The notes under the pieces: model-generated | The model's database searches: none | Told to the model about the DNA's origin: nothing | Seen by the model: only the letters and a program-made list of their open reading frames with translations | Position numbers and translations under genes: made by a program | Shown: one piece after another, positions 15,017-29,054 of the stretch | Position numbering within the stretch: position 1 is the stretch's first letter | How the letters are laid out: every line of letters begins with the position of its first letter | NCBI GenBank assembly: GCA_965204335.1 | Contig: OZ241982.1 | Location: 2,815,956-2,879,955 of the forward strand | Reading direction: 5' to 3' | Length of the DNA: 64,000 nucleotides | DNA from: Dehalococcoidia bacterium | GTDB lineage: Bacteria > Chloroflexota > Dehalococcoidia > Bin125

Positions 15017-15424
15017 TCATGTCCGGCGCGGCGGCCCAACTAACTCCGGGAAGTAGCTCTCATAGAAGCCGCGATCTCTGGTCAGAAAGGCATCGGCCCT
15101 GAGCGGCGCGTGAGCGCCGATCATGAAGTCGGGCAGGATGCGCGTGCGCGGTCCACCGGCCCGGCGGTACAGCGCCCAGCGGCGTCCGGCTTCCCAGGCG
15201 ACGTCGGAATCGATCTCTGATCGCTGAACGCCCGCGTCTCGTAACGCCTCGTCGAGCCTGGCGCGGTCCCGAAAGTTTGGGACGAGTTCCGCGTAGGTGA
15301 TTGCTGAGGCGATCACCTCGCCGGCCGACAGCGCCGTGGCAATCTGCTCGCGCGACTCCGATTGATTGACGGCGTTGGCGATGAACAGGTCCAGCAGGAC
15401 ATTCGTGTCGACCGCGGTGATCAT
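15017..15424 (-). CDS. vapC: VapC-family PIN-domain toxin
   Basis: AVDTNVLLD, AEL, DFMIGAHA, LTRD. Confidence 0.9.
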   Translation of the reverse strand: MITAVDTNVLLDLFIANAVNQSESREQIATALSAGEVIASAITYAELVPNFRDRARLDEALRDAGVQRSEIDSDVAWEAGRRWALYRRAGGPRTRILPDFMIGAHAPLRADAFLTRDRGFYESYFPELVGPPRRT

Positions 15425-15657
15425 CTACCGCGGATTTCCTCGATGTAGGCATCCACATCGTTTGGCGCAACGCCTGGAATATCGAATCCTTGCAGGATGC
15501 CGGTCACCTCGTCGAGCTGTTCCTCAATCGAGGCGCTCTTGCGGATGAGGATGCCGTCTTCGGTCCCGGAGATCTCCACCTCAACCCCGCATTCGAGCCC
15601 GAAGCGGTCGCGCAGTTCCTCTGGGATCGTGACCTGGCCCTGCTCAGTGACTCGCAT
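15421..15657 (-). CDS. AbrB/MazE/SpoVT-family antitoxin
   Basis: RVTEQGQVTIPEELRDRFGL; 4-nt overlap with vapC; GGAG RBS. Confidence 0.88.
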   Translation of the reverse strand: MRVTEQGQVTIPEELRDRFGLECGVEVEISGTEDGILIRKSASIEEQLDEVTGILQGFDIPGVAPNDVDAYIEEIRGR

Positions 15658-15814
15658 GACTCGCTCCGCTGTCTCAATGCCGACGCATCGTTCAGCGTAC
15701 CGGGAAGTCGGCGACCGCGATGGGGTGCCAGGCGATGGCATTGGTTGCGAAGGTGTCACCCCGGCAGGTGCGGGAGTCTTCGGGAGGGAGACCAGTCAAA
15801 GGGCGCATATTGGC

Positions 15815-16987
15815 TCAGTCCCCAATCGACCGAACGGGGAAGTCCCTGGCCGGGTGGGCTTTGAGGACCTCCTCGTCCAGGTCGATACCCAGCCCCGGGG
15901 CCGTGGGCAGGGTGATGTGGCTGTCTTCGACCTCGAAGGCGGGGCTGGCGGCCTCCTGGCCCCAGGGTTCGAAGTTGACGAAGTACTCGGTGATGATGAA
16001 GTTGGGCATCGTGGCGGCGGCGTTGAGCGTGGAGGCGAGCGCGACGGTCGTGGAGTTGTAGTTGTGCGGCGCGACGGCGACGAAGTAGATCTCGGCCATG
16101 GCGGCGATCTCGGTCAGTTCCTTGATCCCGCCGACGTTGGCGACGTCGGGGTTGATGATGTCGGCGGCGCGCTGCTCAAAGGCCTCGCGGAATTCGAACT
16201 TGGTGTACAACTCCTCGCCGGTGACGGTGGGGATGTTGATCTGCGCTGTCGCGGCGGCGAGCGCGGTCATGTTCTCGGCCCAGACCGGTTCTTCGAACCA
16301 GAACGGTTCGTACTCCTCGACCATCTGCGAGAGCCGGACGGCGTTGGAGGGGCTGAGCCGGCGGTGGATTTCGAGCAAAACGTCGACCTCGGGACCGACG
16401 GCTTCGCGGACGGCGCGGACACGCTCGGCGGCGAGGCGGAGTTCCTTCATCCCCACGTAGCTGCGCCAGCGGCCGGGGACGGGGTCGAACTTGAGGGCGG
16501 TGAAGCCTCGCTCGACCATCGCCCGGGCCCGGGCCTGGAGTTCTTCGATATCGTCCATCTTCGCCCAGCCGTTGGCGTAGACGCGAAGCCGATCGCGCAC
16601 GGCGCCGCCGAGCAATTGGTGCACGGGCATCCCGGCGCGTTTTCCGGCCAGGTCCCACATCGCCTGTTCGACGCCGGAGACGGCCGAGTAGAGGTCCATC
16701 GCGCCGCGGCGGTTGCCGAAGTCGTTGTAGATGGCGTCGGTCCACGGTTTGATTCGCGCGGCGTCCCAGCCGACGATGTAGCGCCGCATCGCTTCGAGGT
16801 GCGCCACAATCTGGATGTCGCGGTCCGACTGGGTGTAGCACTCGCCCCAGCCGTGCAGCCCGTCGGCGGTTTCGAGGCGGACGAAGCAGAGGTTCTTGCC
16901 GGCGATGTAACGGTCGGGCTGGCCGCTGTCGGGCGTGGTCGGGTGGATCAGGTAGTGGCGCAGGTCGACGATGGTGGAATCGGACAT
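15815..16987 (-). CDS. Mandelate racemase/enolase-superfamily dehydratase (galactonate dehydratase-like)
   Basis: GWGE, AMWDLAGK, YANGW, KFDP, WFEEP, GEE, PD..NVGG, APHN, PGLG. Confidence 0.9.
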   Translation of the reverse strand: MSDSTIVDLRHYLIHPTTPDSGQPDRYIAGKNLCFVRLETADGLHGWGECYTQSDRDIQIVAHLEAMRRYIVGWDAARIKPWTDAIYNDFGNRRGAMDLYSAVSGVEQAMWDLAGKRAGMPVHQLLGGAVRDRLRVYANGWAKMDDIEELQARARAMVERGFTALKFDPVPGRWRSYVGMKELRLAAERVRAVREAVGPEVDVLLEIHRRLSPSNAVRLSQMVEEYEPFWFEEPVWAENMTALAAATAQINIPTVTGEELYTKFEFREAFEQRAADIINPDVANVGGIKELTEIAAMAEIYFVAVAPHNYNSTTVALASTLNAAATMPNFIITEYFVNFEPWGQEAASPAFEVEDSHITLPTAPGLGIDLDEEVLKAHPARDFPVRSIGD

Positions 16988-17057
16988 GGACGTGCTCGCA
17001 ATCGATGATGAGTCGGGTCAAGGCAACGCTCCCACAGTATCGGTGTCCGGCGGGTGA

Positions 17058-18455
17058 TCATCGGCCTCTCCAGCGGGCGTCTCGGCCGACCGGCTGCCGC
17101 ACGATTTCGATTCCCGGCAGCTTGACGGCTTGGGGAACCTCCTGGAGCAGTTCGTGCATGTAGCGGTCGGCGTCGAGCAGATCGTCGTGTCTCTTGACCG
17201 GTTTCGGGCCTCCGCGCGATTCGCCGGCCCAGCGGTACTCCCTCATCCGTTCCGGGAAGCGCTCCAGGTTGGGCGTATAGAACGAGCCCGGCGGATCCGC
17301 CCCCAGGCGATCCTGTACCAACGAGATGCCCCAGGCGACCGATCCGTCTCCGCCCCGACTCGGCACGACGTCGATGCGCCGCCGCCGCTGATGGTCAATC
17401 CAGGCGCTCTGCGAGCGATCGGCGCACCAGCGGATGTGTCCATAGACGCTCTCGCAGCGGCGCTGCCATTGCTCCAGGCGCTGCATCACGCCCTCTCCCC
17501 GTGCCTCGAACTCGTCCAGCCGGATCAGCACATCCGGACCGCACGGCGCATCCGGCCCTGTGATCCCCGCGACGATCCCGGCCGTGTAGTGGGCTTGTTC
17601 GCTGAGCCCACCGAAGTCGAGCCCACCGGCATAGCGGGCGAAGTTCGGCAGCCCCCCCGTCCAGGCATGCAACCGAGGCTCGAAGCTGGAGTAGATCTGT
17701 CCCGCGAACGCGTCGAACCGGCCCTCGATGAACCGCTCCACCCAATCGCCTCGGTGCAGCGCGCGCTGTTGCTCCGCGTAGTTCCCGGGCAGGTACGGGT
17801 TGTCCGCAATCCGCGCCGGCACGAACATCACGCGACCTGCTGCCAGCGCCAGCGACTCCTCATCCAGCTCCCGTCGCACGAACCAGCGCTCGAACCAACC
17901 TGGCCACGGGTTCGAGGCGGCGACGAACCAGCGCTCTTGCTGCGCCGGATGACGTAGTCGGGTCAGCAGCATCTGCGCGGCCTCCTCCGCCACCTCGCCG
18001 CCCTCGTCGACAAACACCGACCCGTACTCCTGTGATCCCAGCCCGGTCCACGCCGAAAGATGCCGAAAGTTGATCGTCGAGCGCGCCGCTCCATCGCTCA
18101 GACTCACCTCGACCTGGTGCGTCGGTGACTCCCGCCGTTCTCGAATCAGGTGCTCCGGACATCGGCGGTAGAACTCCGCCATCGTCGTCGAATGCAAGTC
18201 CGTGTAGTGCTGTCGGGCGACCAGCACATTGTTGCCTGGATGCAACAACGCCGCATCCAGCGCCAACTCCACGATCGCCCTCGTCTTCCCTCCTCCCATC
18301 GCGCCTCCATAGCCGATCAACGACACGCCTGCCGCATCGCCCTCACTCAGCATCGAGTACAACTCCAGCTGTCGGGCCGTCGGGCAAAACTCCCGAGCTT
18401 CATGCAATCCGCCCACACGCCTCATCATCCGCTTCCCCATCAGCGCAACAGCCAT
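17058..18455 (-). CDS. Phage terminase large subunit (PBSX/Terminase_3-like), orphan
   Basis: Walker A YGGAMGGGKT, Walker B VFVDEGGE, RLR, ASNP coupling motif, DNPYL, RNase H-like nuclease GLDFG...ADRS...HDDLLDADRY; GGAGGGAG RBS. Confidence 0.9.
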   Translation of the reverse strand: MAVALMGKRMMRRVGGLHEAREFCPTARQLELYSMLSEGDAAGVSLIGYGGAMGGGKTRAIVELALDAALLHPGNNVLVARQHYTDLHSTTMAEFYRRCPEHLIRERRESPTHQVEVSLSDGAARSTINFRHLSAWTGLGSQEYGSVFVDEGGEVAEEAAQMLLTRLRHPAQQERWFVAASNPWPGWFERWFVRRELDEESLALAAGRVMFVPARIADNPYLPGNYAEQQRALHRGDWVERFIEGRFDAFAGQIYSSFEPRLHAWTGGLPNFARYAGGLDFGGLSEQAHYTAGIVAGITGPDAPCGPDVLIRLDEFEARGEGVMQRLEQWQRRCESVYGHIRWCADRSQSAWIDHQRRRRIDVVPSRGGDGSVAWGISLVQDRLGADPPGSFYTPNLERFPERMREYRWAGESRGGPKPVKRHDDLLDADRYMHELLQEVPQAVKLPGIEIVRQPVGRDARWRGR

Positions 18456-18495
18456 GCCGACTCCCTCCGTTGCCTACAGCTCGACATCTACCTAC

Positions 18496-18509
18496 AGTAC
18501 GTCAGTTCT
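18496..18509. promoter_or_regulatory. Putative LexA box, one mismatch (AGTAC-GTCA-GTTCT)
   Basis: One substitution from AGAAC-N4-GTTCT; about 40 nt upstream of the terL start. Confidence 0.5.
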
Positions 18510-18553
18510 ACTTCCAATGCCCCCACGTGCTCCGTCTACCCCGATACTTCTAC

Positions 18554-18567
18554 AGAACTGATGTTCT
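18554..18567. promoter_or_regulatory. Putative LexA (SOS) box AGAAC-TGAT-GTTCT
   Basis: Perfect GAAC-N4-GTTC palindrome of the Gram-positive/Chloroflexota type; abuts a TACCAT -10-like hexamer at 18570-18575. Confidence 0.72.
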
Positions 18568-18609
18568 CATACCATTGACCTCACCCTGGAGTTACGGAAC
18601 GGACAAGAC

Positions 18610-18966
18610 ATGACCAACCCCACGCCACAGGCCATCCAGCAGCGCTACTGGGAACTCGCCAACAGCCCCAGCGAACGCGGCTACGTCCAGGTTCGGGCCC
18701 TCGACTCACTCTCTCGACTGCTCGATCTCTTCCCCCGGCCAAAGCACACCGCCTTCTTCGCCGTGCCCACGCCCGAGCCCGCGCCACAGCCCCTTGACCC
18801 CTCCGTCCGACCCGCCGACGTGGTCCTGATGAGCGACAAAGACCTCGACGCCCTGATGGTCAGGGAAGAAGCCGATGCCGCCGCGCAGACCGCGGCCAGG
18901 ACCGAATCCGAAGACGACGATGAAGACGACGAACCTTCCAACTCCGACGAAGATGAACCTCCCTAA
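18610..18966 (+). CDS. Small protein resembling an HTH-less terminase small subunit, with acidic tail
   Basis: QVRALDSLSRLLDLF resembles the TerS K-ALELLGK-LGMF helix; MSDKDLDAL resembles TerS C-terminal LSDEEL segments; divergent from terL. Confidence 0.55.
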   Translation: MTNPTPQAIQQRYWELANSPSERGYVQVRALDSLSRLLDLFPRPKHTAFFAVPTPEPAPQPLDPSVRPADVVLMSDKDLDALMVREEADAAAQTAARTESEDDDEDDEPSNSDEDEPP

Positions 18967-19077
18967 TCCCCCGCTCCCCGAGGATCGCGAGCGATCCCCC
19001 CACCCCGACCCGGCGTTTTTTTCTTTCGCCCTCCCCATCCTTCCCGGCACGATCGCGGGGTCAGCGGGGACGGGGAG

Positions 19078-19128
19078 CCCCCCTCTGTCCCGACGGGACA
19101 TCTCCCCCCGCCCGAGGCGGGGGGAGAG
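19078..19128 (+). repeat. Family-B palindromic repeat
   Basis: CCCCCCTCTGTCCCGACGGGACATCTCCCCCCGCCCGAGGCGGGGGGAGAG, between convergent genes. Confidence 0.85.
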
Positions 19129-19141
19129 CGGAAGTGGGCCG

Positions 19142-21022
19142 CTAACGCGAGTAGCCGGGGTCTTCGGATTCGTACTCCTCGGCGTTGGCGCCCATGGCGA
19201 AGAGGAGCTTGGCGAAGTCCTGACCCGCCTGGGTGTCGCGGAGGTCGCGGGGCAGCTCCTCGAACCAGTATGCGATCTCGTCCAGGTGCTCGGCGGCGAG
19301 GTTCATCGTGCCTTCGCTGAGACCGTCCTGGCCGAACCAGCTGTAGCGGTCGGCGGCCAGCGCGACGACCGAACCGAGGTCGAGCAGGGCGTCGTCGCCG
19401 AAGCGGGACACGCCGCTGACCAAGTCGACCTGCTGGCGGTTCGACTCGTCCGCCATCGGGGTCAGCCAGCGCAGCTCGATCTCACCGAGATCGATCACGT
19501 CCTCTCGCAGCGCGTCGGCCGTCAGTTCGACCTCGAAGAACATGGTCGTGGCCGAGCCCATCGGAATCTCGGCGAACTCGCGGCGGTCCTGCTCGAAGTT
19601 GCGGTCCGCGGTGACGCGGTTCTCGTAGCCGACCAGCCGCCAGGCGAGCACCGAGTCGTCGTCCCAGCGCACCTGGGCGCGGGCCTGGTCGGCGAACGGG
19701 ATCGAGAGCGCCAGCCAGTTCTCGCGGCTGAACGTCGAGCGGGCCTGGGCGACGTCCTGGAGGTAGCGGTACCAGCCGTTGCCGTGCTGGGCGAGTTGCT
19801 CGAGCAGCACGTCGTTGTAGTTCTCGATGCCGACGCCGACGGTGATCAGACGCAGCGGATTGGATTCGTCGCGGTCCTCTGCGGTGCGCAGGATGGCGAA
19901 CGGGTCGGTGGCGTCGACGTTGGCGACGCCGTCGGACATGAGGATCACGTAGTTGTAGGCATCGGGCCGGTCGCGGCGGATGTCGTCGGCCAGCTCCACG
20001 CCGAGGTTGAGGCCGGCCTGCACGTTGGTCGAGCCGGTCGGAGCCAGGCGATCGATGATTCGCCGAATGCCGAGGTTGTCCGGGTGCTGATGGCGCTCGC
20101 TGGCCAGGATGTTGTTCGAGAAGAGCACCACCGCGATCCGATCATCGCGGCCGAGCCCCCGGCGAATCGATTCGGCGGCGGCTCGGGCGATCTCGACTCG
20201 ATTGCCCTCACGCATCGAGCCGGACGCGTCGAGCACCAGCGTCACGTTGAGCGGGGTGTTGTCGACGAACTCGGGCGCCTGCGTGGCGATCCGGACCAGG
20301 TGGAGGTCGTCGTGCAGCGGATGCTCGACGATCTCGGTGGTGACGGCGAAGCTGTCGGTCGCGTCGGGCAGTTCGTAGCTGTAGTTGAAGGCATTGATCC
20401 ACTCTTCGGCTCTGACCGACGCCGGTTCGATCCGGTAGCCGGCCTCAACCCAGTTGAGGGCGAGGAAGTACGACGTGCGGTCGACGTCGAGCGAGAACGT
20501 GGACGTGTCGTCGTCGACGGTGTCGCGCCAGCCGGTGGTGGCGTAGTCCTCGAAGTTGGTGGAGCCGGGCAGGGAGCGGCGCGGCGTGCGGCGCTCCTCG
20601 CTGGATCGCTGTTCACGCTGTTCGCGGCGGGAGCGGGAGCTGTCGGACGAGGCCTGCTGAGCCTGTTCCTGCTCCGCGGCCTGCTCGGCCTGTTCTTCTT
20701 CTTCCTCGTACTCGGCAACCGCTTGCTGCTCTTGTTGTTGGGCCCGTTGTTGGGCTTGCTGGGCGACGGCCTGTTGTTCCTGCTGTTGGTAGGCCTCCTC
20801 TTGCTGTTCCTGGTGTTGCACCGCCTGCTGTTGTTGCTGCTCTTGTTGCTCAACCTGTGCCGCAGCCTGTGCGACGCGGGTGGGCTGCTCGCTTTCAGCC
20901 TGTTCCGCGTCGTCGCTGCAGGCGGCGGAGAGCATCGCCGCGGCGACCGCCAGGATGATCAATGGCGGCGCGAGGATGCGAATCCACCTCCGGGTGTTGG
21001 TTCTGGTCTGGCTCTGGTTCAC
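19142..21022 (-). CDS. YfbK-like VWA-domain lipoprotein with Gln/Glu-rich linker
   Basis: AGGAGG + GTG at 21022; LSAAC lipobox; STFSLDVDRTSY, VRAEEWIN, DASGSM MIDAS, SDGVANV, RLVGYENR. Confidence 0.9.
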   Translation of the reverse strand: MNQSQTRTNTRRWIRILAPPLIILAVAAAMLSAACSDDAEQAESEQPTRVAQAAAQVEQQEQQQQQAVQHQEQQEEAYQQQEQQAVAQQAQQRAQQQEQQAVAEYEEEEEQAEQAAEQEQAQQASSDSSRSRREQREQRSSEERRTPRRSLPGSTNFEDYATTGWRDTVDDDTSTFSLDVDRTSYFLALNWVEAGYRIEPASVRAEEWINAFNYSYELPDATDSFAVTTEIVEHPLHDDLHLVRIATQAPEFVDNTPLNVTLVLDASGSMREGNRVEIARAAAESIRRGLGRDDRIAVVLFSNNILASERHQHPDNLGIRRIIDRLAPTGSTNVQAGLNLGVELADDIRRDRPDAYNYVILMSDGVANVDATDPFAILRTAEDRDESNPLRLITVGVGIENYNDVLLEQLAQHGNGWYRYLQDVAQARSTFSRENWLALSIPFADQARAQVRWDDDSVLAWRLVGYENRVTADRNFEQDRREFAEIPMGSATTMFFEVELTADALREDVIDLGEIELRWLTPMADESNRQQVDLVSGVSRFGDDALLDLGSVVALAADRYSWFGQDGLSEGTMNLAAEHLDEIAYWFEELPRDLRDTQAGQDFAKLLFAMGANAEEYESEDPGYSR

Positions 21023-29003: not shown

Positions 29004-29054
29004 CCCTCTCCCCCCGCGGCGCGGGGGGAGATGTCACGGCGTGACAGAGGGGGG
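29004..29054 (-). repeat. Family-B palindromic repeat
   Basis: CCCTCTCCCCCCGCGGCGCGGGGGGAGATGTCACGGCGTGACAGAGGGGGG. Confidence 0.88.

Follow-up and report, generated by a model that had tools for sequence, protein, structure and literature searches.

Two divergent genes and the spacer between them

The window, by which we mean the whole 64-kb stretch of DNA that was analysed, belongs to a genome assembled as one contig (3.15 Mb, 65.8% GC) and holds two divergently oriented genes, a terL-like gene and a small gene, separated by a spacer of 154 bp (18456-18609). The features of the locus, from left to right, are:

17000-17057, no strand: left insertion junction, from the start of the MR/MLE gene to the terL stop, placed by comparison with 12 empty sites and by the end of the repeat unit
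17058-18455, minus strand: terL-like gene, 465 aa, ATPase and nuclease intact
18494-18499, minus strand: predicted -10 element of terL, TACTGT, overlapping the GTAC half of box 2
18496-18509, no strand: box 2, AGTACGTCAGTTCT, predicted LexA-type operator adjoining terL, read from the sequence
18554-18567, no strand: box 1, AGAACTGATGTTCT, predicted LexA-type operator in the small-gene promoter, read from the sequence
18570-18580, plus strand: -10-like TACCAT (18570-18575) and the conserved TGACC after it, matching the family promoter consensus
18610-18966, plus strand: small gene, 118 aa, TerS-like, with an acidic C-terminal tail and without an N-terminal helix-turn-helix (HTH)
18967-19141, no strand: right flank of the insertion, where a T-run follows the small gene and REP-like GC-rich hairpins occur

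The divergent layout is no assembly artefact, because contigs from runs of three studies span the 5' end of terL, the spacer and the small gene (covering 17151-19103, 18129-19108, 17788-19106 and 18237-18990); the best-covering run among the sources of these contigs may be the source sample. No variant lies inside the spacer among the contig variants listed. One contig joint skips 17187-19072, with 30 nt on one of its sides.

Direct reading of the spacer bore out most of what the first-pass annotation had described there, namely a perfect palindrome at box 1 and, upstream of terL, a one-mismatch version at box 2, lying 58 bp apart (measured start to start) and each preceded by CTAC (18550-18553 and 18492-18495, respectively). 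The TACCAT hexamer, which had been said to abut box 1, is near it but not strictly abutting, with two bases (CA) between the 14-mer and the hexamer. A scan of both strands of 18300-19200 for the strict sigma-70 consensus returned no promoter, and no -35 element was evident; an Rfam search of 16900-19300 gave nothing beyond a chance-level snoRNA match (E 0.18).

Functionally, the large gene is identified by homology as a terminase large subunit (TerL) in which the motifs of the N-terminal ATPase and of the C-terminal RNase H-like nuclease are intact. Its product matches the Pfam families Terminase_3 (7.7e-11) and Terminase_6N (3.5e-7), the viral family phrog_2 (8.9e-25) and, over the nuclease domain, the large terminase of PDB 5oe8 (E 0.0069), with LDFG, CADRS and LDADRY aligned. 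Across an alignment of 37 sequences that includes three viral relatives, the Walker A motif (G48-K57, GYGGAxGGGK), the Walker B glutamate E151, D280, D346 and D424/425/428/430 are invariant and the D150/E151 pair is conserved, and the acidic nuclease residues D280, D346 and D428/D430 align to those of 5oe8. By the measure of dN/dS, which ranges from 0.09 to 0.66 in 34 close pairs and is below 0.3 in most, the terL family is under purifying selection. Evolutionarily, the viral relatives of this TerL in IMG/VR are 37-45% identical to it, and the TerL proteins of cultured phages at most 27% identical to cassette TerL. A TerL subtype of ~520 aa, found in many relatives and in another copy of this genome (G000:C1:1131194-1132765), aligns to the window TerL as two separate segments interrupted near residue 300, as would be expected if extra sequence had been inserted between its ATPase and nuclease domains.

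Searches of Pfam, PHROG, NCBIfam and PADLOC assigned the small protein to no family. In the IMG/VR relatives, a phrog_51 small terminase (TerS) gene lies upstream of terL, and an hhalign comparison of 33 cassette small proteins with four viral phrog_51 TerS gave a probability of 62% (E 7.6e-5) over 42 columns. The match was restricted to template columns 66-110, the central helix region of viral TerS, and nothing in the cassette proteins aligned to columns 1-65, which hold the N-terminal HTH DNA-binding part. The best PDB match of the small protein is the Pam5 small terminase (E 0.089), and its Atlas cluster carries Terminase_2 in 21% of members (score 0.87). Thus, there is modest support for a TerS-like small gene, and the earlier description of the locus as a terminase pair holds for the intact TerL but is weaker for its partner, a TerS-like protein devoid of the N-terminal DNA-binding domain.

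The LexA motif of the genus and its predicted regulon

A motif of the GAAC-N4-GTTC type is reportedly used by the LexA of Dehalococcoides, and the first-pass annotation had presumed the same for the present lineage. This presumption was confirmed at the lexA promoters of this genome and of its genus, where 24 of 30 loci carry a perfect GAAC-N4-GTTC at one conserved place upstream of the gene and the remaining six carry a one-mismatch box at the same place, with a box spacer that varies freely among the 30 loci. Four of these six variants read GTAC-N4-GTTC and so have the same GTAC half-site as box 2. The genome studied here has one lexA gene; one other genome of the genus (G023) has two full-length lexA matches.

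The imuB promoters of the genus (27 loci), which lead into imuB and then a dnaE2-like polymerase gene, tell a similar story, with a perfect box in 19 and a one-mismatch box in five, three of the latter being GAAC-N4-GTAC. The imuB box usually lies 2 nt ahead of a -10-like hexamer, a geometry that box 1 matches, and the imuB promoters of two relatives read CTACAGAAC, as in the window. Separately, in-frame TGA (or TAG) codons occur near the 5' end of the imuB matches of several relatives (L166, L168, L169, L172, L179 and others), which may only reflect a match running upstream of the true start.

We scored the 3.15-Mb genome with a symmetrised position weight matrix that rests on these two operons only, its input being the 36 distinct sites found in the lexA and imuB promoters of the genus. 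Box 1 scored 19.85 bits and ranked first in the genome, and box 2 scored 16.87 bits and ranked eighth, where 12 sites in all reach at least 16 bits; nowhere else in the genome do two sites of at least 12 bits fall within 100 nt. An initial approach that combined a strict GAAC-N4-GTTC scan (47 sites) with Pfam annotation of the neighbouring genes gave no clean regulon and was dropped in favour of this comparative matrix. Other genes of this genome (G000:C1) with a scored site upstream are:

YifB/ComM-like ATPase gene: 18.5 bits, box at G000:C1:2005623
Rv2578c/SplB-like radical SAM gene: 16.0 bits, box at G000:C1:690570
ogt: 14.9 bits, box at G000:C1:2982438
lexA: 14.4 bits
recA (G000:C1:2811129-2812115, ~4 kb before the start of the window): 12.0 bits, GCAC-N4-GTTC

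No site was found upstream of uvrA or dinB, where the best scores were -4.8 and -5.2, respectively. Scoring against the genome's own SOS promoters, as had been proposed in the first pass, was thus favourable for the two boxes themselves but less so for the wider regulon, given the weak recA site and the absence of one at uvrA. Since uvrA and dinB lack a site, recA reaches only 12.0 bits and the matrix derives from two operons, the LexA regulon looks small and is thinly defined. Candidate SOS genes of the lineage are the YifB/ComM-like ATPase gene, ogt and the Rv2578c/SplB-like radical SAM gene; its predicted SOS regulon comprises lexA and imuB-dnaE2 and, probably, YifB/ComM, ogt, the SplB-like radical SAM gene and the terminase cassettes described below.

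A multi-copy family of two-gene cassettes

The pair had been described as an orphan, and in this the annotation was not borne out: it is one copy of a multi-copy family of two-gene cassettes. Of the 36 other genomes of the genus, 33 carry TerL, frequently as several copies. The protein occurs in four of the ten genera of the family, which is the sole family of its order (33/36, 8/9, 2/2 and 1/1 genomes); the 16 genomes searched in the six remaining genera gave no match, and 24 genomes from other families of the class gave one weak match. This genome itself holds two further full pairs and one remnant that consists of the small gene alone, all among housekeeping genes.

The neighbours of the window copy are MR/MLE, PIN/MazE, beta-lactamase-family, VWA and ThuA genes, and no phage genes were found among the neighbours of the copies in this genome. 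Two genes away from the cassette, on the minus strand, a MazE/AbrB-type antitoxin gene (15421-15759) leads into a PIN-domain gene (15017-15424), and the two probably form a toxin-antitoxin pair. Genome-wide searches for PF05065, PF04860 and PF05133 found no capsid or portal protein, and the ~700-aa protein that follows terL in the viral relatives had no match either, with the proviso that very divergent virion genes could have escaped these searches. PADLOC assigned no defence family to six cassette proteins. A decaying prophage remnant was considered and rejected, with the lack of phage neighbours, the dN/dS range of the 34 pairs and the recurrence of the two genes in four genera all against it.

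Genomically, the window copy is an insertion, because its flanking VWA and MR/MLE genes adjoin, only 86-258 bp apart and in the order ThuA-VWA-MR/MLE, in 12 other genomes. One genome carries a co-directional cassette at this same VWA-MR/MLE site, and three genomes carry there a solo small gene with a box. Solo TerS-like genes that keep a LexA-type box and lack terL occur at G000:C1:781754-782333 and at loci L201, L205 and L209, the last three with the box just downstream of TACAAT, and a 63-aa stub of terL follows one solo TerS-like gene. At ~23 loci (for example L093, L099, L112, L137 and L156, and the copy of this genome at G000:C1:3005836-3009199) an orthologous CoA-transferase family III gene, ~85% identical, lies downstream of terL while the cassette subtypes differ, which looks like a second hot spot where cassette variants are exchanged.

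In another genome, five copies (L123, L128, L130, L132 and L133) are 88-96% identical, which points to a recent multiplication within that genome. The repeat unit begins ~60 nt ahead of the box, ends just past the terL stop and contains the two genes only, and these five loci show no integrase or transposase and are flanked by REP-like hairpins. The right half-site of the box is lost in all five (GAACACCCATCC), and these copies may have escaped LexA. The REP-like element is a GC-rich double hairpin with the core CCCCCCTCTGTC...GACATCTCCCC next to CCCCCCGCC...GGCGGGGGG; it borders many cassette copies, has 45 mostly intergenic copies in the genome and occurs in the window at 19078, in the right flank, and at 29025. 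Taken as a family, to judge from these genomic comparisons, the cassettes persist and multiply in one Dehalococcoidia family and are exchanged at chromosomal hot spots.

Boxes and promoters across the cassette family

With the lexA/imuB matrix, which is independent of the cassettes, a site of at least 12 bits was found in 39 of 75 cassette upstream regions versus 3 of 65 controls taken from downstream of terL, counts that overstate independence because the loci are related. A promoter model (box, 1-3 nt, TAnnAT, CGAYC) was found in 63 of the 75 regions, and an alignment of 58 distinct family promoters contains 18 perfect boxes, 31 with one mismatch and nine with more than one, both the model and the alignment having been seeded with the motif. 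Within this alignment the half-sites are strongly conserved (G98 A76 A97 C98 and G90 T98 T64 C91, in per cent), the box spacer reaches only 38-64%, and the -10 consensus is T91 A88.. A88 T97, followed by CGAYC or CAAC. At the same time, 26 of the 75 upstream regions score below 10 bits, three of them at truncated loci; LexA control, as predicted from these sites, is not universal in the cassette family. Two boxes of at least 9 bits within 100 nt occur in 11 of 72 cassette upstream regions (L135, L158, L115, L126, L129, L147, L163 and others), in some of which the boxes stand on both sides of the -10 element.

The viral relatives carry their TerS gene directly upstream of terL and in the same direction, whereas in the window copy the small gene is adjacent but divergent. 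A profile search of 74 loci found the small gene pointing the same way as terL in 58, divergent in ten and absent in six, and the idea that the divergent layout is a one-off inversion was dropped once the ten such loci were found. On the terL side, all ten carry GAAC-N4-GTAC read toward terL, its GTAC overlapping a -10-like TAC(T/G)(G/A)T, an element that was read by eye in the ten loci and confirmed by script in six; the terL-side box reaches at least 12 bits in seven of the ten. On the small-gene side, a box of at least 11 bits and a TACCAT-type -10 are kept in nine of the ten. The one base by which box 2 departs from the palindrome, together with part of its CTAC prefix, is thus accounted for, because the GTAC half overlaps the -10-like TACTGT facing terL.

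Evolutionarily, a quick TerL tree puts the ten divergent loci in at least five separate places among the co-directional ones, so the promoter-terS module has been flipped or swapped repeatedly; no convincing inverted repeats were found flanking an invertible promoter-terS segment. The closest relative that shares this layout, whose TerL is 72-73% identical, retains box 2; its box 1 has decayed, although the skeleton of the adjoining -10 can still be recognised. The conservation at related loci that the first-pass annotation had called for was therefore found at the level of the family (39/75 regions versus 3/65 controls), but not for box 1 in the nearest ortholog. Taken together, none of the in silico checks that it had put forward as possible grounds for refutation went against the LexA reading.

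Proposed regulation and alternative explanations

We posit that boxes 1 and 2 are operators of the host LexA within a bidirectional SOS promoter. Box 1 would act from 2-3 nt upstream of the TACCAT -10 that reads into the small TerS-like gene, and box 2, which reads GAAC-N4-GTAC on the other strand, would overlap the TACTGT -10 that reads into terL. In the undamaged cell, LexA bound at both boxes would keep both genes shut, and upon DNA damage the RecA-stimulated self-cleavage of LexA would release them together. We consider it quite probable that LexA represses both promoters and that damage releases them jointly. Binding by LexA, the two -10 elements and the co-induction are what we infer here; the identity of the motif with that of lexA and imuB, the genome ranks, the conservation of the two-box arrangement and the intact terL come directly from the sequence and its comparison.

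The alternative that survives best is that the boxes are relics of an ancestral temperate phage or element that was itself under LexA control, and that one or both no longer regulate anything here; box 2, for instance, might belong to a duplicated and now defunct copy of the family promoter, with terL silent or read from elsewhere. The flanks of the two boxes do resemble direct copies (CTACAG...GTTCT), a decayed copy of the family -10 and of CAATCCC lies downstream of box 2 on the plus strand, in the ortholog as well, and boxes have decayed in several copies of the cassette. The score of box 2 is nevertheless still high, the GTAC/TACnnT overlap facing terL recurs in all ten divergent loci despite their scattered positions in the TerL tree, and terL is intact in a family under purifying selection, so that we regard relics as an unlikely explanation.

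Less probable still is that the palindromes are bound by another regulator, or that they are structural parts of a promoter, packaging or recombination site. Such a role would fit boxes that always accompany the cassette promoter and a cassette that moves or is exchanged by an unknown route, but lexA and imuB-dnaE2 carry this motif across the genus, with identical variants and an identical distance to the -10. This genome was found to have a single lexA gene, and the cassette lacks any recognisable DNA-binding regulator, its small protein being without the TerS HTH. A chance origin of two GAAC-N4-GTTC-like words, in a spacer of lower GC than its surroundings, could draw on the fact that the bare GWAC-N4-GTTC pattern is unenriched in the window (three matches, representing two sites with the palindrome counted on both strands, against a shuffle mean of 2.44, and three or more matches in 39 of 100 shuffles), but is effectively refuted by both of these sites falling inside the one 154-bp spacer as the first- and eighth-ranked boxes and the only close pair of a 3.15-Mb genome, and by their conservation at related loci.

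If the two boxes are indeed LexA operators, what the cassette does upon induction can be framed in several ways. By analogy with operon I of the staphylococcal pathogenicity island (SaPI) SaPIbov1, the cassette may possibly be satellite-like, triggered through the SOS response by damage or by phage replication, and load DNA into, or compete for, the procapsids of a helper phage; we favour this reading, tentatively. More speculative, and in our estimate rather unlikely as a whole, is the broader proposal that SOS-wired, terminase-only cassettes (an HTH-less TerS plus a full TerL) represent a new kind of minimal element that, upon DNA damage or phage attack, hijacks the procapsids of a helper phage to package host or cassette DNA, and would then be the smallest known satellite or a driver of lateral transduction, or that blocks the packaging of such a phage as a defence. 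Alternatively, the cassette may encode a damage-response enzyme that the host has domesticated, or be a selfish element whose mobility depends on TerL.

Comparison with known systems

The core palindrome is that of the LexA operators of Firmicutes and Actinobacteria (the 'Cheo box'), found here at lexA and imuB-dnaE2. The lineage differs from those systems in that its operators accept, or make use of, a GTAC half-site at places where this half-site also begins a -10 element, and in the small size of the regulon recovered, with a weak site at recA and none at uvrA or dinB. As far as it could be consulted, the text of PMC3323433 describes GAAC-N4-GTTC for the LexA of Bacillus subtilis and Mycobacterium tuberculosis. 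The present data thus give a defined, if predicted, SOS regulon for a Dehalococcoidia lineage, and what would be a clean example of an operator half-site (GTAC) doubling as the start of a -10 element.

Among mobile elements, phage satellites (PICI, cf-PICI, PLE and P4-like) resemble the cassettes in being chromosomal and carrying packaging genes, and the known satellites rely on the virion parts of a helper. To our knowledge, all described satellite classes carry integration and regulation modules, whereas we found no bare terminase pair among the described classes; integrase, att, replication and repressor modules of the PICI/SaPI kind are absent from the cassette, which consists of two genes only between housekeeping flanks. 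Gene transfer agents (GTAs) offer another likeness, as a host-regulated terminase that would package non-phage DNA, but GTAs have head, portal and tail genes, and none was found here in the searches for PF05065, PF04860, PF05133 and the protein that follows terL in the viral relatives. In Bacillus phage GIL01, host LexA binds SOS boxes in phage promoters, according to the part of PMC4551915 that we could consult; GIL01 differs in being a complete phage in which LexA acts on early promoters together with a phage co-factor, and no stand-alone terminase is controlled. Our literature search found nothing on LexA-controlled terminases in Chloroflexi or on orphan terminases.

If LexA does gate the cassettes, DNA damage would switch on a DNA-cutting and DNA-pumping enzyme several times per genome in these uncultured bacteria, which would bear on DNA exchange, phage resistance or damage processing in such genomes, and the locus would open onto an undescribed family of SOS-wired, terminase-only cassettes.

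The closest parallel lies with the SaPIs, which are ~15-kb islands with integrase, replication, repressor and capsid-remodelling genes that borrow the TerL of their helper. The cassette differs from them in its size of ~2 kb, in having an HTH-less TerS-like gene and its own full TerL only, in lacking an integrase, and in occurring as several copies per genome in Chloroflexota. The likeness is in the control: operon I of SaPIbov1 includes a homologue of terS and reportedly comes under LexA control via AGAACTTAAGTTCG, so that a terS-type gene outside a phage stands directly under an SOS box of the GAAC-N4-GTTC type and the host SOS response turns on packaging functions (PMC11442139, as far as its text was available). 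As far as we found, no other packaging gene outside a phage is known to be controlled by LexA. In the distant phylum Chloroflexota, the same LexA logic would now govern a far smaller unit, equipped with a motor and a nuclease of its own and no shell.
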